This document shows positions 14,112-57,463 of a stretch of 64,000 nucleotides of DNA, one piece after another; positions within the stretch are counted from its first letter, which is position 1; the number at the start of each line of letters is the position of its first letter. The position numbers were made by a program, and so were the translations under genes. The notes below the pieces were generated by a model. The model was not told where the DNA came from, did not search any database, and saw nothing but the letters and a program-made list of their open reading frames with translations. Origin of the DNA: a virus; IMG/VR virus record IMGVR_UViG_3300033144_006256, positions 1-64,000 of that record, one strand, 5' to 3'.

Positions 14112-15260
14112 ATGGAAAAAGGAATAAAATATAGGTTATATCCTAATAATAAACAAAGAATATTATTAGAAAAACATTTTGGTGCTACAAGATGGTTATA
14201 TAATTATAGTTTGAATAAAAAAATAAAACTATATCAGAGAAGAAACAAGTCGATAAGTTGTTTTGATTTAATAAAAGAAATCCCTAAATTAAAAGATGAT
14301 AGAGAATGGTTAAAAGAAGTTAATTCGCAATCTTTACAGATGGAATTACGCCAACTAGATAATGCTTTCACAAGATTTTTTAGAGAGAAAAAAGGGTTTC
14401 CAAATTTTAAATCAAAGAAGAAAAAAAACTCGTTTAGTATACCACAAGGTAATAGAATAGAAGATAACAAAGTTTCTTTTATAAAGATTGGTAGTATTAA
14501 AGCTAAAATAGACAGAAAATTTGATGGGAGAATAATAAAAGCAACAATAAGTAAAAATAATATAAACCAATATTTTGTTTCATATATTATAGATACCAAT
14601 AATATATTAGAGCATACCAGAAATATCAATAAGAAAACAACTGTTGGGATTGATTTAGGGATAAAACACTTTGCTATTCTATCAAGTGGAGAAAAAATTG
14701 ATAATCCGAAATTTTTAAGAAAATCAGAGCAAAGATTAGCCATTCTTCAAAAAAGATTAAGCAAAAAGAAAAAAGGTAGTAACAATAGAATAAAAGCAAG
14801 ATATAAAGTAGCTAAAATACATAACAAAATATCAAATCAAAGGTCGTATTTCTTACATAATCTAACTTCAAAGCTAACCAACGATAACCAAGTTGATACA
14901 TACGCTATTGAAAATCTAAACATAAATGGAATGATAAAGAACCACTGTTTAGCAAAATCAATTAGTGATGTTAGTTGGGGCGAATTTGTAAGGCAATTAT
15001 CTTATAAATGCAAATGGTATGGCAAAAATCTATTAACAATCGGTAGATTTGAACCAAGTAGCAAAATGTGTAGTTGTGGGTATATAAATAAAGAATTAAA
15101 ACTTTCAGATAGAGAATGGGAATGCCCAGAATGTAAAGTAACCCACGATAGGGATATACTTGCATCGAATAACATTAAAAAATTTGCATTACAAAATCAA
15201 AACTTAATAAATAATTCACCGTTGTTGAAACGGGTAGAGCCTGTGGAGCTGTCGCATTAG
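14112..15260 (+). CDS. tnpB: RNA-guided endonuclease TnpB (IS200/IS605 family)
   Basis: N-terminal KYRLYP HTH; RuvC D/E/D intact (GIDLG, IENL, HDRD); CSCG..CPEC zinc finger. Confidence 0.95.
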   Translation: MEKGIKYRLYPNNKQRILLEKHFGATRWLYNYSLNKKIKLYQRRNKSISCFDLIKEIPKLKDDREWLKEVNSQSLQMELRQLDNAFTRFFREKKGFPNFKSKKKKNSFSIPQGNRIEDNKVSFIKIGSIKAKIDRKFDGRIIKATISKNNINQYFVSYIIDTNNILEHTRNINKKTTVGIDLGIKHFAILSSGEKIDNPKFLRKSEQRLAILQKRLSKKKKGSNNRIKARYKVAKIHNKISNQRSYFLHNLTSKLTNDNQVDTYAIENLNINGMIKNHCLAKSISDVSWGEFVRQLSYKCKWYGKNLLTIGRFEPSSKMCSCGYINKELKLSDREWECPECKVTHDRDILASNNIKKFALQNQNLINNSPLLKRVEPVELSH

Positions 15261-15787: not shown

Positions 15788-17872
15788 ATGGCGACAGCAG
15801 ATAATAGTTTAAATATATTTATTAGGGTTAAAACTGAAGCAGAAAAAGCCATTAGAAATGTATCAAAAGAATTAGATACACTTACTAATAATATTTCTTC
15901 TTTTAGTAAAAAAAATGAAGAAGCTATAAAGGCTTCTAATAGATTTGCTATTGGGCTAACTGCTGTTGCTGGTGCTGCTAGTTATATGGGCAAACAAATG
16001 TTAGATGCAGCTGGAACATTTGAACAAAGCCAAATTGCTTTTACAACTATGCTTGGTAGTGCAACCCGTGCAGAAACAATGCTTGATAAACTTGCTGAAT
16101 TTGCTAAAAGAACACCTTTTGAATTAGCTGGGATAGAAGCAAATACAAAACAATTATTAGCAATGGGAATATCTAGCACTAAGATAATGCCAACATTAAA
16201 AGCATTAGGTGATATTTCAGCAGGGTTAAGTGTACCATTAGAAAGATTAGCTTTAAACTTTGGACAAGTAAAAACACAAGGGAAATTAACAGGTAGGGAA
16301 TTAAGAGATTTCTCAGTAGCTGGTGTTCCATTAGTTGCAGAACTTGCAAAACAATTAAACGTTTCTAAATCCGCAATAGCAGAAATGGTTTCTGCTGGTG
16401 ATATAGGGTTTGAAGAAGTTGAAAAAGCATTTATTTCTATGTCCTCTGAAGGTGGTAAATTTAATAATTTAATGGATAAACAATCGAAATCATTAAATGG
16501 TATGATTTCTAATCTTAAAGACGCTTGGGAATTATTTTTAAGAGGTGAAGGACAAAAATTATTAGAATGGGGAAAGCAATTTGTTCAAATGGCAATAGAT
16601 ATAGTTGATAATAAACTTCCAAAATGGATAAATAGAATTGAAGATATAACTAAATATTTAAAAGAACATAAAACTACATTAATTGTTGTTTCTGGGATAA
16701 TAATGGGTGCATTAGCACCAGCTGTTATTTCAGCAGCAACTGCCTTTAGTGCATTAGCATTATCATTAGCACCATTTTTAATAACTGGTGTAATCGCTGG
16801 TGCATTAGCCGCAGGGATAATAGCTATTATAAAAAATTTTGATAAATTAAAAAAAATTGTAGTAGATACTTGGGATAAAATTAAAAATGGTTGGAAGGCA
16901 GTAGCTAATTGGTTTAAAACTGGTGGAGCAGGGACTTGGGGATGGGTTAAAAATTTTTTCAAATCATTGATTGATAGTATAAAAAGTTTTTTTACATTCA
17001 AATGGATAAAAGATGGACTTTTATCACTTAGAGATATGACTAAACGGGTTACCAAAGAAATCACCGAGACTGATGAAGAAAGGATGGCGAGATATAAAAA
17101 AATACAAGAAGAAACGATAAAAAGGGCGTGGGGGATGGAATTAGAATGGCGAGCGAAACAAATAGAAATGGCGGAAGATGCGAAAGAAGCACAAGAAGCA
17201 ATGGCTAGAGCATCAAAAGAGGCATCAGAAGAAGCAGAAAAAGCAGCAAAAGAAGCATCTAAAGCGTGGAAAGAATATGTAAATAAAACGGTGGATAATC
17301 TTCAAAGGTTAAAAGATGAATTTTTTGGTGAAAGAGATGAAGAAGTATCAGCATTAGAAGATATGATTAGTAAAAGGCAAGAATTACAAGACGAGATTAA
17401 ACAAGAGCGTGGTTTGCTAATGGGAACATTTTTAGGCGAACAACTTACTAATAAAGAAATTGAAAAAAGAATGGCATTACACGGGGACGAAATAAAAGCA
17501 CTTGATAAAAGATTTGTAGCAGAACAAACACAAATAGAACAGGCAGAAGAAAGAATAAGGCAATTAAAATCAGAAGAAAAAATACTTGATACTAATACTA
17601 TTAAATTAAGAGCATTACAAAGACAAGCAGTAGTTGAAAAACAAATAACTGGTATGGGATTAGATTTACCAGCCAGAGAAACACCTGGGTTTCAAGCACC
17701 ACTTCCTATAGATTGGATAAAAGCTGGTATGCCATCACAAGGGTTAGCACAAAATATTCTTAACTTTGATTTTAGCGGAGCAAGAATAGAAGATAAAGAA
17801 ACATTTAAAAATGATATTATAGAAGTATTAAGGCAACAAAGTATACTAGGAGTTCAAGGATTAACACAATGA
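15788..17872 (+). CDS. Tail tape measure protein
   Basis: Tape-measure N-terminal domain (FAKRTPFEL..GQVKTQGKLTGRELR), Trp-periodic amphipathic helices, coiled coil. Confidence 0.92.
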   Translation: MATADNSLNIFIRVKTEAEKAIRNVSKELDTLTNNISSFSKKNEEAIKASNRFAIGLTAVAGAASYMGKQMLDAAGTFEQSQIAFTTMLGSATRAETMLDKLAEFAKRTPFELAGIEANTKQLLAMGISSTKIMPTLKALGDISAGLSVPLERLALNFGQVKTQGKLTGRELRDFSVAGVPLVAELAKQLNVSKSAIAEMVSAGDIGFEEVEKAFISMSSEGGKFNNLMDKQSKSLNGMISNLKDAWELFLRGEGQKLLEWGKQFVQMAIDIVDNKLPKWINRIEDITKYLKEHKTTLIVVSGIIMGALAPAVISAATAFSALALSLAPFLITGVIAGALAAGIIAIIKNFDKLKKIVVDTWDKIKNGWKAVANWFKTGGAGTWGWVKNFFKSLIDSIKSFFTFKWIKDGLLSLRDMTKRVTKEITETDEERMARYKKIQEETIKRAWGMELEWRAKQIEMAEDAKEAQEAMARASKEASEEAEKAAKEASKAWKEYVNKTVDNLQRLKDEFFGERDEEVSALEDMISKRQELQDEIKQERGLLMGTFLGEQLTNKEIEKRMALHGDEIKALDKRFVAEQTQIEQAEERIRQLKSEEKILDTNTIKLRALQRQAVVEKQITGMGLDLPARETPGFQAPLPIDWIKAGMPSQGLAQNILNFDFSGARIEDKETFKNDIIEVLRQQSILGVQGLTQ

Positions 17873-17917: not shown

Positions 17918-19042
17918 ATGTGTAAGAGTTATAGAATAAAGTTATATCCTAACAATATACAAAAACAAGAATTATTAAAATATGCTGGTGCTTGTAGATT
18001 TGTATATAATTATTTTCTTGATAGAAAGAAAACTGAATATTTAAAAAATAGTAAAAATATCCCATATAATAAACTTTCAAAAGAATTAGTAGTTTTAAGA
18101 CACAATACAAGTTGGCTAAAAAATATACCGTTTGTCCCACTCCAACAATCATTAAGGAATTTAGATACTGCATATAATAAATTTTTTAGGAAACAAGCAA
18201 AATTCCCAAAGTTTAAAAGAAAATATAGTAGGCAATCAATAAGAAAAATTAATGGGTGGCATATAAAAAATAATAAGATAGTTTTTTCTAAAGAATTACA
18301 TTTGAAATTTAGGGGTAGAATTACAGAAAACCCAGTAGGCACTTTAACTATATCAAGGAATGCAATTGGAGAATGGTTCGCCTCTGTAATGGAAGATATA
18401 GAAGTTAAAAAAGTAAAGTTAAAAGGCAATATAGGAATTGATTTAGGTATTAAAGATTTGGCTATAACAAGCGATGGCGATAAATACAAGAATTGCAAAC
18501 CATTAAAATCAAATTTAAAACAATTAAGAAAGAAATCAAAAATACTTTCTAAAAAGAAAAAAGGAAGTAATAGAAGAAAGAAAGCAAGATTTGAATTAGC
18601 AATATTGCACAATAAAATTAGTAATATAAGGAATAATCATCTTCATCATACTTCAAAAGCGATTGTTAGCAAAAACCACGCGATAATTGCATTAGAAGAT
18701 TTGGCGGTTATAAATATGATGAAGAATAGAAAACTATCGCAAGCAATATCAGATGTAGGTTGGGCTGAATTAGTAAGGCAAATTACATATAAACAAAGTT
18801 GGATAGGTGGAAAAGTAATCAAAATTAACAGATTTTTCCCTTCATCGAAGACTTGCTCCAAGTGTGGATTTGTTTTAGATAGTTTGCCATTAAATATTAG
18901 AGAATGGCAATGCCCAAAATGCAAAGCAAAACACGACCGCGATGTTAATGCTGGTAAGAATATCTTATCGCAAGCATTAAAAACCGCTAAAAATATTTTA
19001 AAACAAGGGGTTGCGGAACTGCCCCGCGTGGAGAGCAGATAA
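17918..19042 (+). CDS. tnpB: RNA-guided endonuclease TnpB; likely start ATG 17918 rather than TTG 17903
   Basis: SYRIKLYP HTH; RuvC D/E/D intact (GIDLG, LEDL, HDRD); CSKC..CPKC zinc finger. Confidence 0.95.
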   Translation: MCKSYRIKLYPNNIQKQELLKYAGACRFVYNYFLDRKKTEYLKNSKNIPYNKLSKELVVLRHNTSWLKNIPFVPLQQSLRNLDTAYNKFFRKQAKFPKFKRKYSRQSIRKINGWHIKNNKIVFSKELHLKFRGRITENPVGTLTISRNAIGEWFASVMEDIEVKKVKLKGNIGIDLGIKDLAITSDGDKYKNCKPLKSNLKQLRKKSKILSKKKKGSNRRKKARFELAILHNKISNIRNNHLHHTSKAIVSKNHAIIALEDLAVINMMKNRKLSQAISDVGWAELVRQITYKQSWIGGKVIKINRFFPSSKTCSKCGFVLDSLPLNIREWQCPKCKAKHDRDVNAGKNILSQALKTAKNILKQGVAELPRVESR

Positions 19043-24427: not shown

Positions 24428-24703
24428 TCATAAATATTCTACTACTTTAATCCCCAGTTTTTTACAAAGTTTTTTAAAATCATTTTTCCCATTATAATAT
24501 TGATAAAAGATTATTGAAACATCATCTGATTTTCCTTTATAATATCTATCCACAAAATAAGCAAATCCGCATTCTTTTTTATCTATTAAACCGCAGATAT
24601 TATCCATATCACCAATATTTTTTCCTTCATAAGGGCAGAACCTTTTTACCTTTAAAGGAATTTCTATTACAAGATTATTGTTTTTTACAGATATTTTTTC
24701 CAT
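24428..24703 (-). CDS. Hypothetical protein
   Basis: ORF coupled to the upstream methyltransferase in a short minus-strand operon. Confidence 0.55.
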   Translation of the reverse strand: MEKISVKNNNLVIEIPLKVKRFCPYEGKNIGDMDNICGLIDKKECGFAYFVDRYYKGKSDDVSIIFYQYYNGKNDFKKLCKKLGIKVVEYL

Positions 24704-25368
24704 TATAATATTCTTTTATTTGCTATATTACAATAATTTTTACTTAATTCTATCCCTATAAATTTCCTATTAAATTGTTTTGCAATTTTTAATATAGTCC
24801 CACTACCACAGAAAGGATCAATTATTAAATCATTTTCTTCTGTTGTCGATAATATTATTCTTTTTGCAATTTCTTCAGGAATTGGACAGCTATGATTATT
24901 ATTCTTTTTACTAACATTTTTAATTTGATTTACTTTCCACCAATCGTAACTTCTACAAGTTTTTCCTTCTGCAATTCTTTTTTTTATTCTTTTATCATTA
25001 GGATTTTTATATTCTTGAGGTATTTTTCTAAAATCTGGTTTGCAATTCCACCAAGTTATAATCCTATGTTGTTTTGCTGTATTGCTATTATATACCCAAC
25101 TTACAGATTGTTGGCATAAACCCAAATCAAGTGTTGCTAAAATATTTATTGTTTCTTCTGGATAATGAATTATTATTGATTTTTTATTTGAAAAAACATT
25201 ATATAATAAATCCCTATATTCATCTACATCTAAATTATCAGTGTAATTATCATAATGATATTTTTGGTTATAAGGTGGATCGCTTATAAAAAATGCTTTA
25301 GATAATATTTTATTATCAATATTATCTAAAATTTCTAAACAGTCACCTTGTATAATTTTATTTTCCAT
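24703..25368 (-). CDS. N6/N4 DNA methyltransferase (beta class); likely start at MENKIIQGD
   Basis: IIQGDCLE, DPPY, H.CPIPE and DPFCGSGT motifs. Confidence 0.9.
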   Translation of the reverse strand: MENKIIQGDCLEILDNIDNKILSKAFFISDPPYNQKYHYDNYTDNLDVDEYRDLLYNVFSNKKSIIIHYPEETINILATLDLGLCQQSVSWVYNSNTAKQHRIITWWNCKPDFRKIPQEYKNPNDKRIKKRIAEGKTCRSYDWWKVNQIKNVSKKNNNHSCPIPEEIAKRIILSTTEENDLIIDPFCGSGTILKIAKQFNRKFIGIELSKNYCNIANKRIL

Positions 25369-25463
25369 TTTGTTTTCACAACAAGTTATAGTTATTTTTC
25401 CAAAGAATGCCACTAGCGATTGATGAACTAATGGCATTTTCAAGAAATACAACTTATATTTTT

Positions 25464-25557
25464 ATTATAGCAGATATTTAAAAAATGTCAAGCGACCATA
25501 TAACCATTATAACTTTAAAAACAAGGATTTGACATTTTTAGTAGTATGAATTATAAT
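25464..25557. promoter_or_regulatory. Divergent sigma70-type promoter pair
   Basis: Minus strand TTGACA(25491-25486)-16-TATAAT with extended TG; plus strand TTGACA(25529)-17-TATAAT(25552). Confidence 0.75.
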
Positions 25558-25562
25558 ATAGT

Positions 25563-25672
25563 TAATGTATAGGGAAGATAGTTATAAAATTGATAACAGT
25601 TTTATAATCCGAGAAATCGGTGAAAACTTTTCTATACATTGCATTTAACACCCGTAAGGGTGTTTTTTGCTT
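25563..25672 (+). ncRNA. Putative structured small RNA, copy 1 (multi-stem junction plus terminator)
   Basis: Follows a promoter; stems AATGTATAGGGAAG/CTTTTCTATACATT and CCGA-GAAA-TCGG; terminator ACACCC-GTAA-GGGTGT-T5; homolog on the minus strand near 49.8 kb. Confidence 0.6.
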
Positions 25673-26293
25673 GTTGAATAATGCGAATTATGTTCAACAA
25701 AAATACAATTATGTTTTTTGATATAAAAAGTTTTCGCTATATCGGAGTAGGCGTACGAAACTGACGAGTGTTTAGCCAGTTAAGTTTTCTGGTGAATTAA
25801 AAAAACGATATTTCTTAATTACCTAGTGACTGGGTTAAGAAATAATGATAAGCGATTAAAATTAAATAACAAATATTCTAATTAAAAGGATTTTATATCG
25901 CCACCAATGCTTCTGTGTGCTTGTTATGTAGCTACAGATAACCGTCACGAAAAGGGTGCTGGGGTGCGGATCCTCTAAATATCCGCCACTTCTTGAAGAA
26001 TAAATTTTTAATATTCTAACGCACAAAATCTAAACATCCCTTTTTATATCAACATTCATATAAATATCCAATTTATTAATTCCATTTCAAAAGCGGGATA
26101 ACTACAACAATTTTTGAAGAATAAATTATAAAGAAATAATATTAAACAAGTAAGAATAAAAAGAAATAAAAAAAAGAAAAAAACCGCTTGCGATAGCAAG
26201 CCACGAAGCGTAGCGAAGTGTGTATCGGAAATAAAAAATAAAAAACAAAATATTAAATAATAGTAATAATTTTAAAAAAAGATAATACAACAC

Positions 26294-26321
26294 TTGACAT
26301 TTTTCCTATATCTGTTATAAT
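26294..26321 (+). promoter_or_regulatory. Early promoter
   Basis: TTGACA-16-TATAAT with extended TG. Confidence 0.75.
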
Positions 26322-26351
26322 AAAGATATAATAAATTAAAGGAACAAAAAT

Positions 26352-26915
26352 ATGTCTAAAATAACAATATCTATAATAAAAAGTTTTATTAAAAAGAACT
26401 TTAAAAAAATATACATAAAAATAACAAGTAATTTTGATACTAATGATGATTGCTTAATTGGGTTTAAAGATAGCGAATTTAATATTATGGCAGAAAGCAT
26501 AAGATACCCTAAAAATACATTGGGGATAGAAGGTGCTTGGTTTATAGGAAACAGCAGGGATTATTTTGAAAAATATGAAGATGATGAATTTACTGGATAT
26601 ACAGTTAGTAATTGTTGCGGTTCATTTATAATAGCAATTAAAAAACCAACAGATAAAAATATATTAGATGATTATATACAATTAAAAACTAATTTTTATG
26701 GTAAAAAGTTTTCAATATACCAGTTATTCTTAAATGAATTTCGGGGGAAAGATAAAAAATTTAGTGAACTTACAGATATACCAGCAGATTTAATACCTTG
26801 CCTAGCAATATTTAATGATAATAAAATACAATTATGGTTTCATCTTAACAATGGGGCAACAGTAAAAGAATATTTAACAAATAAATTTTTAAATAAAGAA
26901 TTTGGAAGGAAATAA
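26352..26915 (+). CDS. Hypothetical early protein
   Basis: ORF directly after a promoter and AAGGA RBS. Confidence 0.6.
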   Translation: MSKITISIIKSFIKKNFKKIYIKITSNFDTNDDCLIGFKDSEFNIMAESIRYPKNTLGIEGAWFIGNSRDYFEKYEDDEFTGYTVSNCCGSFIIAIKKPTDKNILDDYIQLKTNFYGKKFSIYQLFLNEFRGKDKKFSELTDIPADLIPCLAIFNDNKIQLWFHLNNGATVKEYLTNKFLNKEFGRK

Positions 26916-27687: not shown

Positions 27688-28368
27688 ATGAAAAAATCTT
27701 GGAAATATTCATCACCAAATGGCAAGGAAGTTTGGAAAGAACTTGAAAAAATATCTAATGTTGGATATTCAAATTTCTTTACTGATTGGCTTGATTTAAT
27801 ATTAGCATCGCTTCTTTCTTTAACTGATAATTTAAAAAGGGATAATATTAAAGAAAAACTACTTAATAATAAACTTGATGGCATATACGAAGAAAGATAT
27901 TTGCAAATCGCCAATAAATATAAAAGCGAAAAAGAAATAGGAAATCGTCCAATAGATTTTTTTGCAAATGCTTGGAACAAACTTTTTAAAGAAACATTAG
28001 AAAAACAAAAAGATATTTTAGGTGATATTTATCAGGGCAGAATAACAATGGGAGAAGCAGGACAGTTTTTTACGCCAGAACATATCACAGAAGCGATGGC
28101 AGAAATGCAAATAACAGAAGATAATAAAAATATAATCGATCCGTGTTGCGGTAGCGGAAGATTTTTAATATCAGCTAATAAGAAGAATAAAAACTGTTAT
28201 CTTAATGGTATTGATATTGATAATAGATGTGCCAAAATGTGTGCTATAAATATGTGGATATTTGATTGCAATGCAACAGTTAGACAAGGCAATCCTTTAA
28301 CAAATGAATTTTACAATCAATGTGATATACGAAAAGGCTGGTTTATTTATGAACGAATTTTAGCTTAA
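27688..28368 (+). CDS. N6 DNA methyltransferase-like protein (HsdM-type SAM-binding half, no NPPY motif)
   Basis: DILGDIY, GQFFTP and DPCCGSGRFL motifs; ends before any catalytic motif IV. Confidence 0.75.
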   Translation: MKKSWKYSSPNGKEVWKELEKISNVGYSNFFTDWLDLILASLLSLTDNLKRDNIKEKLLNNKLDGIYEERYLQIANKYKSEKEIGNRPIDFFANAWNKLFKETLEKQKDILGDIYQGRITMGEAGQFFTPEHITEAMAEMQITEDNKNIIDPCCGSGRFLISANKKNKNCYLNGIDIDNRCAKMCAINMWIFDCNATVRQGNPLTNEFYNQCDIRKGWFIYERILA

Positions 28369-28386: not shown

Positions 28387-28442
28387 TTATCCACTTTTAT
28401 CCACCTTTGAACGCTTGACATTTATTCTACATCTGCTATAAT
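28387..28442 (+). promoter_or_regulatory. Early promoter preceded by two DnaA-box-like sites
   Basis: TTATCCACT and TTATCCACC (8/9 match to TTATCCACA), then TTGACA(28415)-16-TATAAT. Confidence 0.65.
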
Positions 28443-34554: not shown

Positions 34555-35277
34555 ATGGAAAACATAATTAAACAAGGTAAACTAGAAAATAATATTTACT
34601 ATTTACCAGAGATACAACTAGATAGAAAAGAATATTTAGAAGTTGCAAAACACTTAAAATTCTTAGGTGGAAAATGGAAAGGCGGTAAAATAGGCGGGTT
34701 TATTTTTGATAGAAATATAAACAGTATTGATGAACTTTTAGGCAATAATACAAAAAAGAAAAAAGAATTACAGTTTTTTGAAACACCTGAAAAATTAGCG
34801 AAAGAACTTGTAGAATTAGCAGAGATAAATAATTATGTAGATATTTTAGAACCTTCTGCTGGCAGAGGAGCGATTATTAAAGAAATAAAAAAAGTATGCG
34901 ACAGGCAAATACAATTTTGTGAAATTGATAAAACAAATTTAAAATATCTTGATAAAATTGATAATTTAGAGAATGTATCAGATAATGGCGATTTTTTGGA
35001 ATTTAACCATATGACATTTGATAGAATAATTGCTAATCCCCCATTTTTTAAAAATCAAGATATTAAACACATATTGCATATGTATGATTTATTAAGGAAT
35101 AAAGGCATATTAGTTTCTATCGCTTCTAAACATTGGGAAAATTCTAAAAATAAGAAAGAAACAGAATTTAGAAAGTTTTTAGAATATACAAAAGCTGAAA
35201 TTATAGATATAAAAGAAGGAGAATTTAAAGAAAGCGGGACAACTATTGGAGGGGTAATAATTAAAATTAAAAACTAG
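34555..35277 (+). CDS. N6-adenine DNA methyltransferase (gamma-type order)
   Basis: QFFETP, LEPSAGRG, IANPPF and FKESGT motifs. Confidence 0.88.
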   Translation: MENIIKQGKLENNIYYLPEIQLDRKEYLEVAKHLKFLGGKWKGGKIGGFIFDRNINSIDELLGNNTKKKKELQFFETPEKLAKELVELAEINNYVDILEPSAGRGAIIKEIKKVCDRQIQFCEIDKTNLKYLDKIDNLENVSDNGDFLEFNHMTFDRIIANPPFFKNQDIKHILHMYDLLRNKGILVSIASKHWENSKNKKETEFRKFLEYTKAEIIDIKEGEFKESGTTIGGVIIKIKN

Positions 35278-35488: not shown

Positions 35489-36006
35489 CCCCTTGATATT
35501 TTTCAGAAATACGGTATAATAATAGTAAGCTTTGCGACATATTAAAACTATAATAGGTTATAAAAAAAATACCAAATATATATATTTTACAAGAAGCCAC
35601 TTAGTTGCAAAGCTTAATAGGTGGTTTTTTGTTTAAGCTACAAGATAAAATCTTGATTAAAAATAGAAAAGTAAAAAAACAATGAATAAAATAAAACTTG
35701 ATAAAAAAGAAAAGGCATTTAAAAAAAGATTATGTAAAATATCTGGCATTTTTAGCGATGAATATTCAATTTTTACAGAATTTAATACATTAAAAAATAT
35801 TTCTTCTAATGATATAATGCATTTGTCATCTGCTGGATTTTTTTGCTTAGCTGGCGAAGATATGATTAGTCCTTTTAACAATATAGTAGAGGATAATGTT
35901 GAAAATTTATTTATAAAATGGATTTTTAGTGGTGATTTAGTAGCAAGAGATAAAATAGTTGAAATTATAAATAATACAATAATAGAAAAAAAAGGAAAAT
36001 CATATT

Positions 36007-36305: not shown

Positions 36306-37061
36306 ATGCGAAGCACAAGAAAACAGCCATTTTGTTGGCAAGAGAAAAAAATAACACGGCTTATAAGAGAACAATATAAAAAATCAATGAGGTCTAAAAT
36401 GTTGTTACTATATGTTACTATAACTGAGATAGATAGTGATTTTAATGGTAAAGATATAAAATACTACACAAAAACAATATCTACATATAGCGGGCTAAGT
36501 AAAGATTTCATACCAACAGGATTAAAATATTTAGAAAAGTTAGGGATAATAATATTAGAAGAAGATAGGGAAAATGGGAAGTTTAAAGGTAAAAGGATAA
36601 ATTTTACACCTGAGAATGTTGAAGAAATGCCCCGAAAAACCATTGCCGTAAAACCCACTAACGGTAAACCCCTTAATGAAAAAAACGAACCATCAGAAGA
36701 TAGTATTATTATAGAAGATAGTAAAGATAAAGAAGATAATATTATACAAGCAGAGCTTGTGGATGATAAAAATTCTTCTTCTAAAGAACCAAACCAAATA
36801 AATACACTAATAGATAAATTTAAACCGATAAACCCTTCTTGTTATAAGTTATTCCCTAATAAAGGTCAGCGTAATGCTTTAGACAGGATGATTAAAAAAC
36901 ACGGCTTTGAAGAACTAAGCAAATTATTAGATGCTTTACCAGATATACTAAGTAAAAAGTATTCCCCAAATATAACAACCCCAGTAGCATTAGAAAATAA
37001 ATTAGGCGATTTGATGATGTTTATTAAGAAAAATAATAAGAAAGGATATATAGAAGTATGA
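36306..37061 (+). CDS. Putative replication initiator (N-terminal winged helix, linker, C-terminal helical domain)
   Basis: LLYV...ISTYSGLS...LKYLEKLGII winged-helix pattern, low-complexity linker, position in the early region. Confidence 0.55.
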   Translation: MRSTRKQPFCWQEKKITRLIREQYKKSMRSKMLLLYVTITEIDSDFNGKDIKYYTKTISTYSGLSKDFIPTGLKYLEKLGIIILEEDRENGKFKGKRINFTPENVEEMPRKTIAVKPTNGKPLNEKNEPSEDSIIIEDSKDKEDNIIQAELVDDKNSSSKEPNQINTLIDKFKPINPSCYKLFPNKGQRNALDRMIKKHGFEELSKLLDALPDILSKKYSPNITTPVALENKLGDLMMFIKKNNKKGYIEV

Positions 37062-39391: not shown

Positions 39392-40289
39392 AGAAAAAGA
39401 ATTTTTAACTAAAAGAATGATAGGCGAAAAAATAAGCCCTGTTTTAGAAGAAATAGAAGATGCACTTTGGGGTTTTGAATATAACAAAGCAGGTGAAAAA
39501 CCAAAATTCACAGAAGCAGGATTTAGAGCAAGTATAAAAATTTTTATGGCAAACCTTTTAGAAAGAATGTATAATAAACAAGAAAAAGAAAATATGCCAC
39601 AAAAAGAACGTCAAAAACAAGCAGAATATTTTGGTAAAGAAATAAGGGAATTAGTTATACTTGCAACTGGCATAGATACGCATAAATTATATAAATAGAA
39701 AGGTAAAAATTATGGTTCATACAGAAGAAAAATGTAGATATTGTAAATATTTCCATAACCCAGATGGAAAAGTAAAAATACTATATCACGATAATATTTG
39801 TTGTGTTGTAGAAGATAAATTTAGAAAGCGATTATTAGTAGTATATAAAAACCATTTCTTAGCTCCACCAATTCAAAAAGATGATATACATATGGTTTTA
39901 ATCGCAAGAAAATTCGGTGATATAGATCCGAAAAAAGGTAAAACAATAAAAGGACACTATATAATTCAAGTAATCCCTGAAAAAGGGAGCGAAGCGGAGG
40001 GCAATCTGAAAGGAAAAAAACGTGAAACCAAGAAAATTCAAAAAGATATGTAAAGTTTGTAAAAAAATATTTTTAGGAAATTCACCAACAGCTAAATATT
40101 GTCAAGAATGCAAATTAACAGCGGTAGAAAATATAAGGCATAAACAAAATTTAACTTATTGGGAAGAAAAAGGAAAAATAAGGAATAAGATAGGCAGAAA
40201 TATGGTTAGAATACTTAGAAATAAAGGGTATGAACACGAACAGATGTTGGAATATTGTGAACAAGCAAAAGTTATCAACAGTTGAACGC

Positions 40290-40317: not shown

Positions 40318-41541
40318 ATAATTATATTATAGAAATATTGAAAACCAACCATCCCCCTAACTCTCTACACAACCCCGAGTTTCTACCCTCCTTGAAACTG
40401 TGGTAGGTTGTGTGGGGTATTAGGGGGGAGGAATAAAGCAATGTGCCTTAAAATAAACTTAATAATTTTATTAAATAACTAAGGATGAACTTTAAATAAT
40501 TAACTACATCATTTGCATTCTTAGTTGAGGGTGGAACTCTTTTGCTCATTCTCAACTAAGATTTCAAGTGATTTAATAAATTAAGTAAAAAATATGGAGA
40601 AAAAAGAATTATTAGAAATGAAATTACACGAAGAATGTGTCGTTAATAAATATTATTCGGTATTAAGAGTTTTTGGAGGATGGATTTATAATCAAATGTT
40701 GGAAAATCAAGATGGAATTTGGACTTCCACGTCAACATTTGTCCCTGAAGTATTAGATTGTGAAGTAATAATGAAAAGTTAAAAAACCGCCTAAGTTCTT
40801 TACAATTAAGGAGGATAAGATGAAAACTTATATTGCTACACTGTGCTTTATAACTCTTTTAAACTTTTTTATATCAAGGGGGTGTAATAATGAATATAAA
40901 AGAAGTTCCGAAAGAAAAAGCAATAAAAAGGTATGAGGGTTTTATCAGGTTTGTTTTACGAAAACCAAGTAGATATACTAAAGCTAATTTAGCCAGAGCA
41001 GACTTATTACGAAGGAATATTTGCAAGAACGGTGGGACTATCATAGATGCAGAGAAAGCATATAGAAGAGCAATAGTAAGGATAGATGAAGAAAGGAAAC
41101 TAAGGGAACAAAGGGTAGCCATAAAACAACAGCAATTAAGAGGGTGGTAATATGGCAGGCACGCCGAACCAAATTAACGAAAAGCTAAGTAAGCAGATAG
41201 AGGAACAGTTTGATACATTTGTTGATAAAGCCACAAAGTTAGGAATGATAAGCAAGGTGGTAAATATCCGCAATAAGAAACCGATTGATAAATATACTTA
41301 TCTAACAGAGCTTTTATTCAGAAATCCAGTATTCATTGATAAAGATATGCTCATCTTGATGACCTTAGTAGAACGGCAATGTATCAACTACGGATATGAT
41401 AGCAAAACACTATCAGAAGCAACGGTAAAGGCAATGAAAATATAGTTGGCAGGTTTCCTCCTCCTTAACCGCCAACCTCAAAAGAGCAGACACCTTAGGC
41501 AAGTGTCTGCTCCCACCTTAAATAAATAATAAATAGGAAGT

Positions 41542-42835: not shown

Positions 42836-43666
42836 ATGAAAAATAAAATTATACAAGGTGAAGCATTAGAAGAATTAAAAAAACTTCCAGATGAAAGTGT
42901 CAATATGTGTATTACGAGTCCACCTTATTGGACTTTAAGAGATTACGGAGTTGAAAGGCAACTAGGGTTAGAGCCAAATTTTAATATTTATATTACTAAT
43001 CTCTGTAATATTTTTGATGAGGTTAAAAGAGTATTAAAAAAAGAAGGAACTTGTTGGGTTATTTTAGGAGATACATATATGACACAAAAAAGAAAATTGC
43101 CTGATAAATGCCTCTGTCAAATTCCATCCCGCTTTGCAATAGAAATGACAAATAGAGGTTGGATATTAAGAAATGAATTGATATGGCACAAATCAAACTG
43201 TATGTCCTCATCAGTAAAAGATAGATTTACAGTAGATTTTGAAAAGATATTTTTCTTTGTTAAGGGTAAAAAATATTATTTTGAAACGCAATATGAACCG
43301 ATGAATGATAAAAGTAAAGAAAGATATAAATATAACTTTACTGGGAATAAAAATAATGATGGTAAACTTACATTGCAAGAACCAAAGGGGAAATCAATAC
43401 AATCAAATAAAGGTAGAAATAAACGCTGTGTTTGGAAAATTACAACTAAATCATATAAAGAAGCACACTTTGCAACATACCCAGAAAAACTTATAGAGAC
43501 ACCTATATTAGTTGGTTGTCCAGAAAATGGGATAATTCTTGACCCATTTTTCGGTGCAGGAACAACAGGAGTAGCTTGTAAAAACCTTAATCGTAGATTT
43601 ATAGGTATAGAAAAAGATAAAGAATATTTTAAAATAGCAGAAGCGAGAATAAAATCAACACCATAA
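42836..43666 (+). CDS. N4/N6 DNA methyltransferase (beta class)
   Basis: TSPPYW, HFATYP and [10 protein letters not shown] motifs. Confidence 0.92.
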
Positions 43667-43719: not shown

Positions 43720-44190
43720 ATGAATATGGATAAAAAAGAAATTCAAAAAAGAGTTTTACAAAATGGGGAACCATTAGACTTAGATAAATTTACTTGGGAT
43801 AAAGATACTAAAACATTTTCAAGTTTAGAAGATAATTTAGTACTTGATTTTAATGGTATAGATTACTGTGTTTTTTCTGCTGGCTCTGACTGTGTTTTCA
43901 AAACTGGCTCTGGTTGTATCTTCAAAACTGGCTCTAACTGTGTTTTTGATACTGGCTCTGGCTGTGTTTTTTCTACTAGCTCTTACTGTATTTTTTCTAC
44001 TGGTTTTAACTGTGCAGTAGTTAGAAGAGATGTTTATGGAGTTATAGAATTAAAAGAAAATCAGAAAATTAAATTAAATGGATGGAATATTAAAGGTTAT
44101 AAAATCCTAGATGAGGAAGAAAAATCTCTATCTGGCAAAAAAGTAAAAGTAGAACTAGACGGTAAAAGTTATACAGCTACTATCGATTAA
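43720..44190 (+). CDS. Protein with tandem 8-aa repeats (TGSxCVFx)
   Basis: About six 24-bp repeats at 43865-44010. Confidence 0.7.
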   Translation: MNMDKKEIQKRVLQNGEPLDLDKFTWDKDTKTFSSLEDNLVLDFNGIDYCVFSAGSDCVFKTGSGCIFKTGSNCVFDTGSGCVFSTSSYCIFSTGFNCAVVRRDVYGVIELKENQKIKLNGWNIKGYKILDEEEKSLSGKKVKVELDGKSYTATID

Positions 44191-44720: not shown

Positions 44721-45587
44721 ATGAAAATCAATCAAATAAAAGTTTGTAAAAGGTTTAGAAAAGATCTTGGTGACTTAGAAGAATTAAAAAAATCAATTAA
44801 AGAAATAGGGCTTTTACAACCAATAGTTGTTGATGAAAATAATAATTTAATAGCTGGACAAAGAAGATTACAAGCATTTAAAGAATTAAGTATCACTGAT
44901 ATAGATGTGAATATAATAAAAATAGATAGTAGTTTAAAAGGTGAATATGATGAAAATGTTATAAGGAAACAATTTACACCGACAGAGGGGGTTAAAATAT
45001 GGGAAGCAATGAAAAGTTATCAGGGGAAAAATCAATATACACAAGAGGATGTGTCCAATTTGGACACAAGCAAAAAAAGAGATAGGGCAGCTAAAGCAAC
45101 AAAGATAGGAAGAACAAATCTTTCAAAGGCAAAACAAGTTATAGAATATGGGGATAAGGATATAATAAAAGAAATGGATAAAACCGAGAATATTAGTGGA
45201 GCATACAGTAAAATTAAAACAGCAAAAACACTAGCAGATATTGAACAACAAAAAAAAGATATAGCAAGTGGCAAAATAAAACTTCCAGAAGGTGTATTTG
45301 AAAATATAGTTGTAGATCCGCCTTGGGATTACAAATCAGAATATAATGCAGAAACACGAAGATCAGCTAATAAATATCCACCAATGACGTTAGAAGAAAT
45401 AGAAAATATTAAATTACCATTAGCGGATGATTGTATATTATGGTTTTGGACAACACAAGCATTTATCTTTGAAGCTAAAAGAATACTTGATAATTGGGGT
45501 TTTGATTATAAAGGAATGTTAATTTGGGATAAAGGGCAAATGGGTCAAGGTTATTGGCTAAGAATGCAATGTGAGTTCTGTGATTAG
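44721..45587 (+). CDS. ParB-N domain fused to MT-A70-type adenine methyltransferase, C-terminally truncated
   Basis: GLLQPIVV..LIAGQRRL (ParB); VDPPW, Y..M..EEI and WGF.Y...IWDK (MT-A70); stops just after QCEF. Confidence 0.8.
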   Translation: MKINQIKVCKRFRKDLGDLEELKKSIKEIGLLQPIVVDENNNLIAGQRRLQAFKELSITDIDVNIIKIDSSLKGEYDENVIRKQFTPTEGVKIWEAMKSYQGKNQYTQEDVSNLDTSKKRDRAAKATKIGRTNLSKAKQVIEYGDKDIIKEMDKTENISGAYSKIKTAKTLADIEQQKKDIASGKIKLPEGVFENIVVDPPWDYKSEYNAETRRSANKYPPMTLEEIENIKLPLADDCILWFWTTQAFIFEAKRILDNWGFDYKGMLIWDKGQMGQGYWLRMQCEFCD

Positions 45588-49063: not shown

Positions 49064-49733
49064 TTCTTTATCAAATAAGAAATATGGTATAACTGTTAAA
49101 AGAATACAAAGATTTTGTTTATAATACTTCCAATATTCTTAAAAGGGGGCGGAATGCTAATGATGCAATATCCGCCCCAAAATACTAATATTTCCAAGTA
49201 TTATTTAAGGTTTTGTTATTAGTTTTATACTTCCGATACAAACTTCGCTACGCTCGTTGCTTTTGTATAAAACACCCTTCGCTACGCTACGGGGTTTTCT
49301 ATCAAAAGCGGTTTTCTTTTTTCTATAATCTTTTCTAAACTTTTTCTTTATTGTTTATATTTATCTGCTTAGTGTTGGCATAGTTATCCCATAGCGATAT
49401 TTAAAAAAATATAACCTTATAATGCCTTCTGTGGAGTTTTTCTAAAGACTAAGTTACTATCCTTAAACAAATGTTACAAAAAAAATGTAAATTTGGCGGC
49501 CTCTTTTCCTATATTACCATTGGATAGCATCCCATTTCGGAAAGGTCGTGCTTTTGCACACATAGAGTATTGATTTTGCTGATGCAACTATCACGCTTTA
49601 GAATTAAGGAGGAGTGGTTACCTTCAAGTATGCTCTCCCCACAGGATTAACAAACTATATCATATGTAGTAGGGTGATTAGATAAAAGCACATAAGCACA
49701 CTTACTTTATCTTATTCGTTCCCTACATTTTAC

Positions 49734-49844
49734 AAGCAAAAAACACCCAATAAAGGGTGTCTGATGCAATGAGATATAATATTTTACCAATTTCTTGGCA
49801 TACAAATTTGTCGATAAAATTGTAATTTATATTATATTCCATTA
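49734..49844 (-). ncRNA. Putative structured small RNA, copy 2
   Basis: Minus-strand promoter TTGACA(49878-49873)-17-TATAAT; homologous to 25563-25672 with compensatory changes. Confidence 0.6.
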
Positions 49845-49878
49845 ACCATATTATAATTTACTTTTAAAAAATTGTCAA

Positions 49879-51348
49879 ATGGATAAACAAGAATTAGAAA
49901 ATATAGCAGAGTCACAATTAAATTTTAGTGAATTTATTAAAAGAATATTCTCTAAAAGTTTTGATAAATTTATCGGTGGGCAATACCCAACAGATGTTGC
50001 TAATTTTATGCAATATTATCACGATAAAGGGAAAAATACGATTAGAATATCAGCAAGGTTGCACGGAAAATCAACTTTTATTTATGCATATATAATGTGG
50101 CTAATATTCAGAATGGATAAAGATTTATCCATTATTTATTTTTCATATAGCGGGAAAATGTCCGCATACCATATAACTAAGATAAAAAAACTAATACAGA
50201 ACAATCCATACTTTAATGAACTTATTGATTTAAAACCAACAGCAGAAACACTAATGGCATATAGGTGGAAGAACAGCAAACACGAAGTAACAGTTAACCC
50301 ACAAGGGCTATTAGGGTTTAAGCGAGGTTTACACAGCTCAGTAGTTATTATAGATGACCCATATTCTATTGACAAAGAAATTGTAAATGAAGTAGTAAAC
50401 TTTTCAAATGTTGCCAAAATAAATAATATTATTAAAGCACAGGTGTTAGATATACCATATGTTGATGGCGGTGAAATACATATAGTTGGCACGCCATTTT
50501 CAAATGATGATGTGTTTTTTGATAAAGAATTAAGAAAGATGTTTGCATTCTGGCAAGCCCCAGCGATTAAAGATGAAAAGAATAAAATAGCATTATGGCC
50601 TGAATATATGGATTGGGATGAATTAATGAAAAGGAAAGTAACCAGAAGTAATTTTTTTGCCCGTGAATATCTTTGCCAGCCGATAATTGCAAGCGAAGGG
50701 TATCTTACAAAAGAACAAGTATTAAGTGTAGTTGACGATAGCTTAACAAATAACGATATTTATGATATAATGACAACGCCTGCAAATACAATAGCAGGAT
50801 TTGATATAGGAAAGAAGCTACACCCATCAGCAATAACTGTCCTTAGATGGGATGGGACAGCTTATAAAGAGATATACAATAGATTTTTAGATAATTGGGA
50901 TTATACAAATGGCGGAGAATTTGACCCTGATAATCCAACACAATTAGAATTATTAAAACTTGTAGTAAAGAATTTAAAAGTTGATATTTTATACTTTGAT
51001 AATACTCGTGGGGAATTTGAAGCGTTTATAGAAACACAGAGCTTGCCACAACAGGCAATCCCAGTAGTATTTTCTTTAAAAGAAAAAACAGCTATGGCAA
51101 TGCATCTTAGCAATGCCATAACTGAAAAACTAATTTTAATACAAAACAAACAGAGATCTATCAACAGTTTATTATCTGTTATGAAAGATTTACAATCAAT
51201 AGAAACACCAGAAGGTCACGGGGATATGTTTTGGGCAATGGCATTGGCTGCAAAAGCCCTTTATGAAATACACCCAAGAGAAGGTGGGGCAAAAGTATCC
51301 ACAGGTTCACCATCAATAGTAGATGGCGAAATACCGAAAGGATACTAA
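49879..51348 (+). CDS. terL: Terminase large subunit
   Basis: Walker A ARLHGKST, Walker B VIIDD, VGTP coupling motif, nuclease motifs GFDIG and HGDMFWA. Confidence 0.9.
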   Translation: MDKQELENIAESQLNFSEFIKRIFSKSFDKFIGGQYPTDVANFMQYYHDKGKNTIRISARLHGKSTFIYAYIMWLIFRMDKDLSIIYFSYSGKMSAYHITKIKKLIQNNPYFNELIDLKPTAETLMAYRWKNSKHEVTVNPQGLLGFKRGLHSSVVIIDDPYSIDKEIVNEVVNFSNVAKINNIIKAQVLDIPYVDGGEIHIVGTPFSNDDVFFDKELRKMFAFWQAPAIKDEKNKIALWPEYMDWDELMKRKVTRSNFFAREYLCQPIIASEGYLTKEQVLSVVDDSLTNNDIYDIMTTPANTIAGFDIGKKLHPSAITVLRWDGTAYKEIYNRFLDNWDYTNGGEFDPDNPTQLELLKLVVKNLKVDILYFDNTRGEFEAFIETQSLPQQAIPVVFSLKEKTAMAMHLSNAITEKLILIQNKQRSINSLLSVMKDLQSIETPEGHGDMFWAMALAAKALYEIHPREGGAKVSTGSPSIVDGEIPKGY

Positions 51349-51363
51349 TATTAAGAATATACA

Positions 51364-53205
51364 ATGAAAATTTTTGGCTTTGAAATAAATAGAAAAGAAA
51401 AAAAAGAAGATGCTAATTATAATATAGCAAGAATAATGCGTGAAATTGGCGTACCTCGTGATGCTGTTATTGGTGAATATAAAACAGAAGAAAACCCTGA
51501 TGAATTGAATATTGATACATATATAAGAATGCAACAAAACGATGGCACAGTTCAAGCTATTATAAGAATGTTGTCTCTGCCTATACAATCCGCAGAACCT
51601 TTTATCATAGGTGCAGAAAATGATAATGGGGAGGCGGATTTTATTCGTACTGTTTTATTTGGCTCAGAATTTGAAGGTGGGATGTCAACACCAATGGCAT
51701 TAGTTATATCAGATATGACAAGAGCAATAGCAGAAGGGTTTAGAGCATATAATAAAGTCCCGCAAGTTATAACACAAGGGGATTATAAAGGGAAAATAGG
51801 TTGGCGTAAAATAGCCCCACGAGATGCACAAACGATTAAGATAAAGGTAGATAAACACGGAGGATTTGATGGGTTACACCAAATAGCAACATTAGGTGAT
51901 CAAACAATAGATAAAAATATTCCAAAAGATTATGCTTTACTATATACATTTCAAAAAGAAAAACACGGGTTGTATGGTGAATCAATATTAAAATCCGCTT
52001 TTTACCATTATGATAAAAAGCATAAACTTTACTACATAGCTTGTAAAAAGGCAGAAGTAGAAACGATGGGGATACGAACAGTTGAACTCCCACAAGCACC
52101 AAATCCATCAGATAGAACTGCGATAGAAAAAGCAGTTGATAATATAGGGATTAATACAAGAATATCTGTCCCACATAATTATAAATTTGATGTTAAATTT
52201 CCTTCTAATGGTGGTTCAGATTTTATAATGAAGAATATAGAACACCACGATTTAGAAATGGCAAAATCTGCTTTATGCGGTATGCTTGAACTAAATTCGG
52301 GAGGTAGTTATGCACTATCAAAAGATAAAAGTAATTGGTTAGTATTAGCAATAAATGGGATTATGAAGGGAATGGAAGCAACAATAAATTCTTATGTAAT
52401 AGCTCCATTGATAAATTATAACTATGGGACATATAATTATCCTAAATTTAAATTCCCTGCGATAACAACAGAAGCGGAAGATTTACTTACAGAAGTTTCT
52501 AAAAGTATATTTAGTAAAGCTGAAATGTTGCCAACAGAAGTATTTAATGATGTTGTTAATAGAGCAGTAGAAAAAATGGGGATTAAAAAAGAACCACAAG
52601 ATGCTACAAAAGAATTAAAGAAAATAGAAAAAGAAAGTGATGAAAAAGAAAAAATAGATAACCTTGTCGAAAAGGCGAAGACAGAAGTTAAATTAGAAGA
52701 ACCAGAGTGTCCATTCTGGCGTGAAAAAAACAAATATGAACAATCAGTATCATTTGAAGATATAGAAGAAAGAATGGATTTACAGAGTGTTGATTTAGAA
52801 GAAAAACTATTGCCTATATTTAAAAAGCAAAGAGCTCAGTTAAAAGTAGCAATTAAAAAAGCAATTAGAAATAATGATATTAAAAGTATCAAGAAATTAA
52901 AATTAATTAAACAAGATAAAATGCAAGAAATACTTTTAGAAGAAATGAATGATACATTTGAGTTTTCTAAAAGGAAAGCAGCAGATGATGATAAGAACCA
53001 ATCGCCAAAAACATCTAAAGCGACAGAAAAAATACTAAAAGCTAAAGCTAAAGAATATGCTGATATGCACGAAGATAGTGTAAAGGAAAGTACCATTAAA
53101 TATCTTGAAGAAGCATTAAAAGATAAAAATCTTAAACTTGAAGAACAAAAGGAAGAAGATTGGAATGATACATTAGAAGAAATAATAGAGAAAGTAAATG
53201 GATAA
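51364..53205 (+). CDS. Portal protein (Mu gp29/DUF935-like) with C-terminal extension
   Basis: YGESILKSAF..Y, HHD.EMAK, GSYAL and PLI.YN....YPKF motifs; follows terL. Confidence 0.85.
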   Translation: MKIFGFEINRKEKKEDANYNIARIMREIGVPRDAVIGEYKTEENPDELNIDTYIRMQQNDGTVQAIIRMLSLPIQSAEPFIIGAENDNGEADFIRTVLFGSEFEGGMSTPMALVISDMTRAIAEGFRAYNKVPQVITQGDYKGKIGWRKIAPRDAQTIKIKVDKHGGFDGLHQIATLGDQTIDKNIPKDYALLYTFQKEKHGLYGESILKSAFYHYDKKHKLYYIACKKAEVETMGIRTVELPQAPNPSDRTAIEKAVDNIGINTRISVPHNYKFDVKFPSNGGSDFIMKNIEHHDLEMAKSALCGMLELNSGGSYALSKDKSNWLVLAINGIMKGMEATINSYVIAPLINYNYGTYNYPKFKFPAITTEAEDLLTEVSKSIFSKAEMLPTEVFNDVVNRAVEKMGIKKEPQDATKELKKIEKESDEKEKIDNLVEKAKTEVKLEEPECPFWREKNKYEQSVSFEDIEERMDLQSVDLEEKLLPIFKKQRAQLKVAIKKAIRNNDIKSIKKLKLIKQDKMQEILLEEMNDTFEFSKRKAADDDKNQSPKTSKATEKILKAKAKEYADMHEDSVKESTIKYLEEALKDKNLKLEEQKEEDWNDTLEEIIEKVNG

Positions 53206-57335: not shown

Positions 57336-57463
57336 AGAGCAGCGGTACTGCTCTACGTGGAGAGACAATAAGACCATTTATGGGTAACTGTAATAAGGCA
57401 ATCTCAGTGAAGCGTTGATATCTTATTAGAAAGGATAATACCGTGGACGAAATAAAAGCGTTA
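57336..57463 (+). ncRNA. Orphan omega-RNA scaffold 3 plus predicted guide (no tnpB)
   Basis: AGAGCAG-CGGTA-CTGCTCT stem; loop complementary to TACCG (57439-57443); ACGT-GGAG...GAA-GCGT core; TATCTT..AAGGATA hairpin; TGGACGAAATA duplicated at 57282 and 57444. Confidence 0.75.

Follow-up and report, generated by a model that had tools for sequence, protein, structure and literature searches.

Two inverted, partly homologous non-coding elements flank the early genes of an uncultured tailed phage in the 64,000-nucleotide window analyzed here (bases 1–64000 of the 84,644-base IMG/VR virus record IMGVR_UViG_3300033144_006256). With a probability of about one half, each element is a boundary cassette that combines an early small-RNA gene with an outward-blocking terminator, the two cassettes being inverted duplicates at the borders of the early block (26.3–49.1 kb). 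The outer edge of each cassette carries a perfect sigma-70-type promoter, from which the host RNA polymerase would produce an RNA of ~108 nt from the start of infection. Because this RNA ends at its own strong intrinsic terminator, the main product is expected to be a discrete small RNA, not a 700-nt transcript. At the inner edge, a terminator on the complementary strand of the 3′ module would stop transcription leaving the early block. In copy 2, it would end the early operon ahead of the late gene terL, which encodes the large terminase, and in copy 1 it would stop any leftward antisense transcription. The spacer between these working parts would be free to drift. The inward promoter of copy 2, located on the terL start, would oppose rightward read-through early in infection by promoter occupancy and collision, and the copy 2 RNA would be antisense to any terL leader. 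We infer from this layout that the cassettes insulate the early transcription domain and that the RNAs have a regulatory action, for which they may have a host target or a protein partner.

Predicted small-RNA genes at the outer edges

The elements occupy the two longest gaps free of open reading frames (ORFs) of at least 60 amino acids in the 84.6-kb genome, located at 25453–26351 (copy 1, 899 nt) and 49064–49878 (copy 2, 815 nt). The original prediction, made from the window alone, had described them as an inverted pair of ~700-nt homologous elements without long ORFs at the edges of the early region. The lack of ORFs and the inverted orientation were borne out, and the copies are diverged paralogs. 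However, the similarity detected by BLASTN is significant for the end modules only. The 5′ module of ~150 nt is covered by an alignment of 156 nt with 71% identity (E-value 7e-19), and the 3′ module of ~135–170 nt by alignments of 65 nt with 85% identity (E-value 4e-14) and 100 nt with 71% identity (E-value 7e-13). The middle parts (454 versus 360 nt) are no more alike than expected by chance, with a local alignment score of 12 compared to a dinucleotide-shuffle mean of 15.3. The motifs TGTGTGC, CGAAA.GGG.TGCT, CCGCCA, and GGGATAACTA, which had been reported as colinear in the middle parts, are present at similar spacing in both copies, but their support is marginal (p about 0.05): a chain-of-6-mers test scored 17 compared to 12.0 ± 2.4, and 16 of 300 shuffles equaled this value. 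Judged from these alignments, the architecture is that of two conserved modules with a drifting spacer, not of a 700-nt homologous element. The predicted sequence TATAATAT(A/G)GTTAATG, the CCGA-GAAA-TCGG/CCAA-GAAA-TTGG hairpin, and the identical terminator tail GGGTGTTTTTTGCTTGT are confined to these two places in the window.

The 5′ module of each copy starts with a TTGACA-17-TATAAT promoter that matches the consensus at 12 of 12 positions, as predicted. The promoter of copy 1 (25529..25557, + strand) is homologous to that of copy 2 (49878–49850, − strand; TTGACA, 17-nt spacer, TATAAT), and the homology extends to the spacer and to the first transcribed nucleotides. The predicted RNA start is located ~7 nt past the −10 hexamer in both copies, and the two RNAs are 72% identical. 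Small RNA 1 (25563..25672, + strand) has a length of ~108 nt and can be divided into a three-way junction and a terminator. The closing stem P1 of the junction is formed by nucleotides 25564–25577 paired with 25627–25640, P2 is a hairpin at 25581–25608, and P3 is a CCGA-GAAA-UCGG hairpin at 25609–25620. The terminator stem at 25647–25664 is followed by a U6 tract that ends at 25670. Small RNA 2 (49735..49844, − strand; ~109 nt) has the same P1/P2/P3 junction, in which P3 reads GCCAA-GAAA-UUGGU on the − strand, and a terminator stem at 49762–49741 followed by a U6 tract that ends at 49735. The shared fold thus comprises a 14-bp P1 with a conserved AAUG/CAUU base, the P2 hairpin, and a 4–5-bp P3 with a GAAA loop, and the terminator hairpin in front of the U6 tract is G+C-rich and 7–8 bp long in both copies. 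Transcription of the two units is predicted from their perfect promoters and terminators. The promoter, the orientation of the fold, and the terminator agree, and the product that they most simply predict is a discrete small RNA of ~108 nt.

The 5′ unit had been described as a multi-stem RNA that shows covariation and has a terminator of its own, which is in agreement with the shared three-way junction and three compensatory pairs found here. The sense strand of small RNA 1 folds with a minimum free energy (MFE) of −41.3 kcal/mol (z −9.1) and that of small RNA 2 with −31.8 kcal/mol (z −5.15); in each case, none of 200 shuffles was as good. The antisense fold of copy 1 (MFE −29.0) is weaker than the sense fold, the antisense fold of copy 2 loses the junction, and a fold common to both copies exists on the sense strand only. 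When the copies are aligned by MAFFT, the common structure is paired in 89% of cells, compared to 38–50% when the partners are slid. Of the pairs changed on both sides, two are in P2 (U-A to C-G, A-U to U-A) and one is in P3 (G-C to A-U). P1 of copy 2 is rewritten in its inner half, with the pairing kept in its own register. As P1 and P2 contain many changes and yet pair in the same columns, selection on the fold is indicated, and its retention through 28% divergence suggests that the fold is important. The small-RNA covariance model R1 recognizes small RNA 2 with a score of 120 bits. The original prediction could not assign a known family, and neither region has a match in Rfam 15 at the gathering threshold. 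The best hit in permissive scans of both regions has an E-value of 0.84, and all hits are far under the gathering scores. The scan of the whole window at gathering thresholds identified one tRNA and nothing else. A riboswitch was rejected, since there is no Rfam match and no antiterminator pairing.

A structured RNA located between a strong promoter and a terminator could also be a regulated leader of the lambda nut, HK022 put, or lambda PR′-tR′ type. The 5′ RNA would then act in cis on its own polymerase, which, owing to the RNA alone or together with a phage protein bound to the GAAA hairpin, would read through the adjacent and later terminators. The product would be a transcript of ~700 nt and, at copy 1, also expression of the downstream early genes. 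The placement of the terminator directly behind the strong promoter is the same as in lambda PR′-tR′, the initial transcribed sequence is conserved, and the GNRA-type hairpin with a covarying stem recalls boxB. However, the GAAA hairpin stands by itself, as there is no boxA (CGCUCUUUA) within one mismatch in either element, and no alternative (antiterminator) pairing is evident in the folds of either copy. The putL and putR RNAs of HK022 are ~70 nt long, alike in sequence, positioned just downstream of the promoters PL and PR, and form a two-stem V fold (PMC9378689). The two RNAs described here are similar to HK022 putL/putR and lambda nutL/nutR in that they are related, promoter-proximal structured RNAs past strong early promoters, inverted at the sides of a block, with terminators downstream. 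They differ from put in forming a closed three-way junction of ~75 nt, which is directly followed by its own terminator. Furthermore, PL and PR diverge into genes, whereas the units of this phage converge, and copy 2 is directed toward the 3′ end of the early block, an area free of − strand genes that it could express. The early block also has perfect sigma-70-type promoters of its own, located at 26294, 28415, 38271, and 40290. We therefore consider a regulated leader unlikely.

The − strand of copy 2 contains a second terminator at the far end of the element (49190–49150), which was read directly from the sequence and in which the long hairpin GGGGCGGA..TCCGCCCC, rich in G+C, precedes CTTTT. 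It is without a counterpart in copy 1. A terminator at this position makes sense only if some transcription crosses the body of the element, and so it fits a leader that permits read-through. Its putative function is to close the copy 2 unit, so that transcription of this unit does not extend antisense to the early genes. A new type of control device, in which the two three-way junctions are cis-acting leaders that decide between a stop at 108 nt and run-on, and so time the early-to-late switch from both borders, is very unlikely. Run-on would proceed into the early genes at copy 1, and antisense across the early/late border by terL at copy 2. The 3′ motif AGCGUAGCGAA, exposed in a loop, would serve as a partner or processing site, and the device could be dependent on a phage factor or independent of one.

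As components of boundary cassettes, the small RNAs have analogs among short phage transcripts. The OOP RNA of lambda, the sar RNA of P22, and the 6S RNA of lambda PR′-tR′ are 77–194 nt long, are transcribed from a constitutive host-type promoter to an intrinsic terminator, and are encoded at a regulatory border. OOP and sar are antisense RNAs against the neighboring transcript. The likeness lies in the short promoter-to-terminator transcript at a regulatory border; there is no sequence or Rfam relationship, and in contrast to these RNAs, the phage described here has two paralogs 24 kb apart. An overlapping opposite transcript, as for OOP and sar, is conceivable for copy 2 only, in the form of the terL leader.

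Predicted inner terminators and the early/late borders

The 3′ module of copy 1 (26129..26262, + strand), delimited by inverted-repeat pairs and BLASTN, contains a GCTTGC-GATA-GCAAGC hairpin at 26186–26201, the motifs AGCGTAGCGAAG at 26207–26218 and TGTATCGGAA at 26221–26230, and an A/T tail ending in TTAAATAATA. The 3′ module of copy 2 (49199..49371, − strand) is composed of a purine-rich tract, GCTTTT-GATA-GAAAAC, TGTATCGGAA, and a tail that also ends in TTAAATAATA; AGCGTAGCGAAG occurs twice, at 49288–49277 and 49254–49243 (− strand), because of a 34-nt duplication. The tracts contain 65–71% purines (71% in copy 1). The conservation of the 3′ modules lies in the sequence and not in a common fold: the conserved parts are the purine tract, AAAACCGCTT..GATAG, AGCGTAGCGAAG, TGTATCGGAA, and the A/T tail. 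The 24-nt motif AGCGTAGCGAAGT.TGTATCGGAA had been reported to occur twice in copy 2. It is present there, but only once; the second site has only AGCGTAGCGAAG..TGT in common with the motif and arises from the tandem duplication. The recurrence of GCGTAGCGAAG was confirmed, with three occurrences in the window (26208, 49243, and 49277) compared to 0.2 expected, all of them in the 3′ modules.

On the complementary strand, each 3′ module contains a predicted terminator. In copy 1, it is located at 26204–26165 (− strand), with the stem GTGGCTTGC-TATC-GCAAGCGGT followed by TTTTTTTCTTTTTTTT. In copy 2, a long hairpin followed by GGTTTTCTTTTTTC (49257..49325, + strand) is the first canonical + strand terminator past the NUDIX gene, which is the last early ORF and ends at 49063. 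Good terminators are rare in the genome-wide scan, and there is no other on the + strand between 44642 and 49277, so the copy 2 site is the expected end of the early operon. Terminators facing one another thus form the bounds of each element.

The elements are positioned exactly at the switches between virion and early genes, with the tape measure (15788–17872) and tail genes to the left, and terL (49879–51348, + strand) and the Mu-type portal (51364–53205) to the right. The head protease is encoded at 57443–59233. The record is linear, has 30% G+C and a CheckV completeness of 80%, and nearly all of its genes are on the + strand. The block of small genes at 26352–49063 was accepted as the early region because it is studded with the perfect sigma-70-type promoters listed above. 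It encodes several DNA methyltransferases, a Rad52-like annealase, a PD-(D/E)XK nuclease, HNH and NUMOD endonucleases, a ParB-methyltransferase, the NUDIX hydrolase, and a protein with a weak match to replication initiators of the lambda-O type. At least five DNA methyltransferase genes are located in or beside the early region (24703–25452, 27688–28368, 34555–35277, 42836–43666, and 44721–45587); the set includes a ParB-MT-A70 fusion and an N6_N4 pair that is encoded on opposite strands and whose N-termini are paralogous.

The copy 1 promoter is arranged back to back with a perfect − strand promoter (25491–25464) of a methyltransferase operon. In copy 2, the −35 hexamer is immediately adjacent to the terL start codon ATG (49879, + strand), and terL lacks a Shine-Dalgarno sequence here. 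Its 60%-identical relatives on the metagenome contigs L087 and L088 have a small co-oriented upstream gene and a Shine-Dalgarno sequence instead. No duplication of the terL start was found at the far end of copy 2. Upstream of terL in L087 (8–335), ~280 nt of non-coding DNA with a higher G+C content is enclosed by a perfect inverted repeat of 24 nt, TTGTATGCACTTTGATAGAGAGAA. The segment may represent the insertion of another element at the corresponding border.

Spacer and possible replication signals

The spacers at 25675..26128 (copy 1, + strand) and 49372..49731 (copy 2, − strand) are without ORFs, without significant similarity to each other, and without excess structure. The marginal motifs in copy 1 are TGTGTGC at 25914, CCGCCA at 25983, and GGGATAACTA at 26095. 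When compared to shuffles, the whole bodies past the terminator have sense z-scores of −1.7 and −1.2, and antisense z-scores of −0.6 and −1.1. In 90-nt windows, the z-scores of the middle are near 0, and the signals outside the 5′ module are confined to the 3′ modules (z −2.4 to −4.7). The unstructured body, together with its lack of conservation, is evidence against one large structured RNA, and the strong terminator separating the small RNA from the body is a further argument against the large non-coding RNA of ~700 nt that had been proposed. A protein-coding body was rejected, as there is no conserved frame or peptide and no fitting start codon, and the 34-nt indel breaks every frame.

The other proposal of the original prediction, two RNA-primed replication origins, is not supported either. 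The elements would in that case be strand-specific priming sites, acting through an RNA-DNA hybrid of a purine-rich transcript, as in ColE1 RNA II and the R-loop origins of T4, or as a folded lagging-strand origin of the ssoA type. We consider this highly improbable. The strong promoter ~600 nt upstream of a 65–71% purine tract, which is followed by a hairpin, is consistent with the formation of a hybrid, but a strong terminator is located between the promoter and the tract. The ColE1-type RNA II/RNA I arrangement, defined by a ~550-nt preprimer and the promoter of an antisense RNA against its 5′ end, was rejected: there is no opposite-strand promoter matching at least 10 of 12 positions in the element bodies, and a strong terminator is positioned 100 nt into the transcript.

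The resemblance to ssoA origins such as palA is based on two motifs. P3 resembles RS_B (TTATGCCGAGAAAATTT), with the string TATGCCAAGAAATT in copy 2 identical at 13 of 15 positions with one gap and TAATCCGAGAAAT in copy 1 at 10 of 12, although these strings are short, lie in an A/T-rich context, and were selected post hoc. The TAGCG-type sequence, which had been said to recall single-strand origin signals, does correspond to the CS-6 motif of ssoA. The 3′ motif holds it as TAGCGA or TAGCGT in a loop-like context, with short complementary flanks in all three instances (CAC/GUG, AAAACCCC/GGGUGUUUU, and CAAC/GUUUG). It is the architecture that does not agree. In ssoA, the two motifs are ~50 nt apart in one ~160-nt hairpin, whereas the RS_B-like and CS-6-like strings of the phage (TAGCGA at 26211 and the copy 2 motifs) are ~600 nt apart, separated by the unconserved spacer, and without a Rep or double-strand origin. 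The 5′ covariance model does not recognize palA of pT181, on which its score of 4.3 bits is at noise level.

No primase, helicase, or polymerase was recognized among the ORFs scanned, which are a subset of all; this favors a role of the elements in priming. However, there is no rolling-circle Rep (neither Rep_trans nor Rep_1), reverse transcriptase, or recombinase in the 84.6-kb record, which is 80% complete according to CheckV. A pair of origins that fire at one another over a distance of 23 kb also makes little sense for replication. Because the GC skew follows gene orientation, the GC and AT skews are uninformative, and no skew switch is present at either element. A conventional origin candidate is located elsewhere, in the ORF 36306–37061, which has a weak lambda-O-like initiator match (phrog_428, 2e-5; phrog_678, 1e-4) and contains four AGAAGATAG(T/G/A) repeats in the middle of the gene (36558–36740). 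The position of the AGAAGATAG repeats inside an O-like ORF resembles that of the lambda ori repeats inside gene O. The O-like gene with its iterons at 36.5–36.8 kb is a better origin candidate than the elements.

Relatives, origin of the pair, and other candidate sites

The phage has no related cultured phage: the best terL match that tblastn identified in the phage collection has an identity of 28% across half of the protein. When 50,697 phage records were searched by BLASTN, none matched copy 1, and plasmid records gave short chance matches only. Exact-pattern scans of IMG/VR with five motif combinations detected nothing, or chance matches in coding DNA and generic terminators, and one pattern scan of GTDB genomes gave no match. 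The terL-anchored neighborhoods comprised 80 viral, 3 metagenome, and 19 genome loci, with the contig of an 87%-identical terL relative (P0002) left out; neither BLASTN nor the R1 model detected a copy of the element in them. The 60%-identical terL relatives have no trace of the element within the 124–454 nt of upstream DNA on their short contigs, and ~60 more distant relatives, including those with long gaps upstream of terL, have no comparable divergent promoter. Over 185 loci and 156 Patescibacteria genomes, R1 gave terminator-driven, chance-level matches only. As far as seen in these searches, the element appears to be specific to this lineage. The terL relatives at 35–42% identity (loci L092–L110) are mostly encoded on contigs binned with Patescibacteria (Magasanik-, Moran-, Shapiro-, and Saccharibacteria, and Parcubacteria) or DPANN archaea, which hints at a candidate-phyla-radiation host range of the phage clade, or at binning by low G+C.

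Several observations weigh against the boundary cassette. The phage, plasmid, IMG/VR, GTDB, and terL-anchored searches gave no homolog that would demonstrate conservation in relatives. The covariation is statistically weak, because it is derived from two sequences only, and 64 of 500 shuffles reach three double changes. There is no complementary phage site of at least 12 nt that is common to both RNAs, save for an A-rich 12-mer at 64053, to indicate targets in trans. A role as terminator would leave the sequence conservation of AGCGTAGCGAAG, TGTATCGGAA, and the A/T tail unaccounted for, and there is no obvious leftward transcript for the complementary-strand terminator of copy 1 to stop. The retention of a ~400-nt spacer in both copies in a compact genome would also be left without explanation. 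The find is modest, being based on two paralogs. The boundary cassette is known in kind, since phage small RNAs with their own promoter and terminator, as well as boundary terminators, have precedents; what is new is that the RNAs belong to no Rfam family and that no homolog was found.

The pair may well have originated by an old inverted duplication of a boundary cassette, of which the two elements would be the diverged products. Alternatively, the elements could be decaying relics of an inverted duplication, or of two insertions of a mobile promoter-plus-stem-loop cassette, in which only generic signals (promoter and terminators) survive and neither the small RNA nor the 3′ motif has its own function. 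The absence of the element from the 124–454 nt of upstream DNA in the two 60%-identical terL relatives, and from all more distant relatives examined, is compatible with such relics. The phage also carries other inserted cassettes, namely two TnpB copies (the only TnpB matches, at 14976–15176 and 18761–18964), and terminators of the ACACCC..GGGTGTTTTTT type are common in unrelated DNA. In addition, T4-type phages spread promoter-early-stem-loop (PeSL) cassettes. However, the pairing of P1 and P2 is kept in the same columns despite many changes, and the 24-nt 3′ motif with the tail is 85% identical beside a saturated spacer. Furthermore, there are no terminal inverted repeats, target duplications, or duplicated terL start, and neither a degraded TnpB nor a transposase or recombinase is encoded within the elements or close to them. 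We regard decaying relics as quite unlikely.

PeSL cassettes consist of an early sigma-70 promoter and a stem-loop, are ~50 bp long, numerous, and nearly identical, and usually form direct repeats. The terminator at the end of Tn916 is reported to be an insulator that keeps the transcription of one module out of the next (PMC11658703). Both resemble the boundary cassettes as short non-coding units of promoter and stem-loop or terminator at module borders. Unlike PeSL, the phage described here has two old copies with 72% identity, in which a structured RNA of ~108 nt is accompanied by another conserved module at a distance of 400–490 nt. Three further types of element were rejected. A retron or diversity-generating retroelement lacks a reverse transcriptase in the 84.6 kb, an invertible segment of the Gin/Hin/Cin type lacks a resolvase or phage-integrase family match in the record, and a TnpB/IS200-605-derived cassette disagrees with the location of the TnpB matches elsewhere and with the single terL start.

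If expressed, the small RNAs would add an unclassified family to the few known phage-encoded small RNAs, from a lineage that has no cultured relatives and for which the relatives of the terminase are often binned with Patescibacteria and DPANN genomes. The layout would be a clear natural example of the way in which a phage may close off the domain of early transcription, with inward promoters, small RNAs, and putative outward-blocking terminators combined at both borders and one of the promoters touching the terminase start codon.

Other candidate regulatory sites are distributed throughout the phage genome. A third small non-coding unit at 35493–35640 has a near-perfect TTGATA-16-TATAAT promoter and a strong terminator ~100 nt further on (35594–35627 and a T run). 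Its 5′ sequence AAGCTTTGC is complementary to GCAAAGCTT in the terminator hairpin, so that an alternative pairing is possible, and in sequence the unit is unrelated to small RNAs 1 and 2. Two tandem DnaA-box-like sites (TTATCCACT and TTATCCACC) at 28387–28405 are located directly upstream of the promoter at 28415, and TTATCAACA (40272–40280) occupies the equivalent place before the paralogous promoter at 40290. The latter promoter is followed by a 300-nt leader (40330–40560) with a G+C-rich hairpin, CCCCCTAA..CTACACAACC/GGTTGTGTGGGGTATTAGGGGGG, at about 40335–40430, and a second hairpin at 40520–40562. Six tandem 24-nt repeats (consensus ACTGTGTTTTTTATACTGGCTCTG) at 43865–44014, inside the ORF 43720–44190 of no known family, may be iterons or encode an 8-residue protein repeat. 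The palindrome TATAAC(N1-2)GTTATA occurs 12 times genome-wide, for example at window positions 10867, 22422, 44705, and 46322, and at genome positions 68034 and 81589. Several of its copies are located directly before start codons or just past promoters, and its possible functions are those of an operator or of a hairpin acting in translation.

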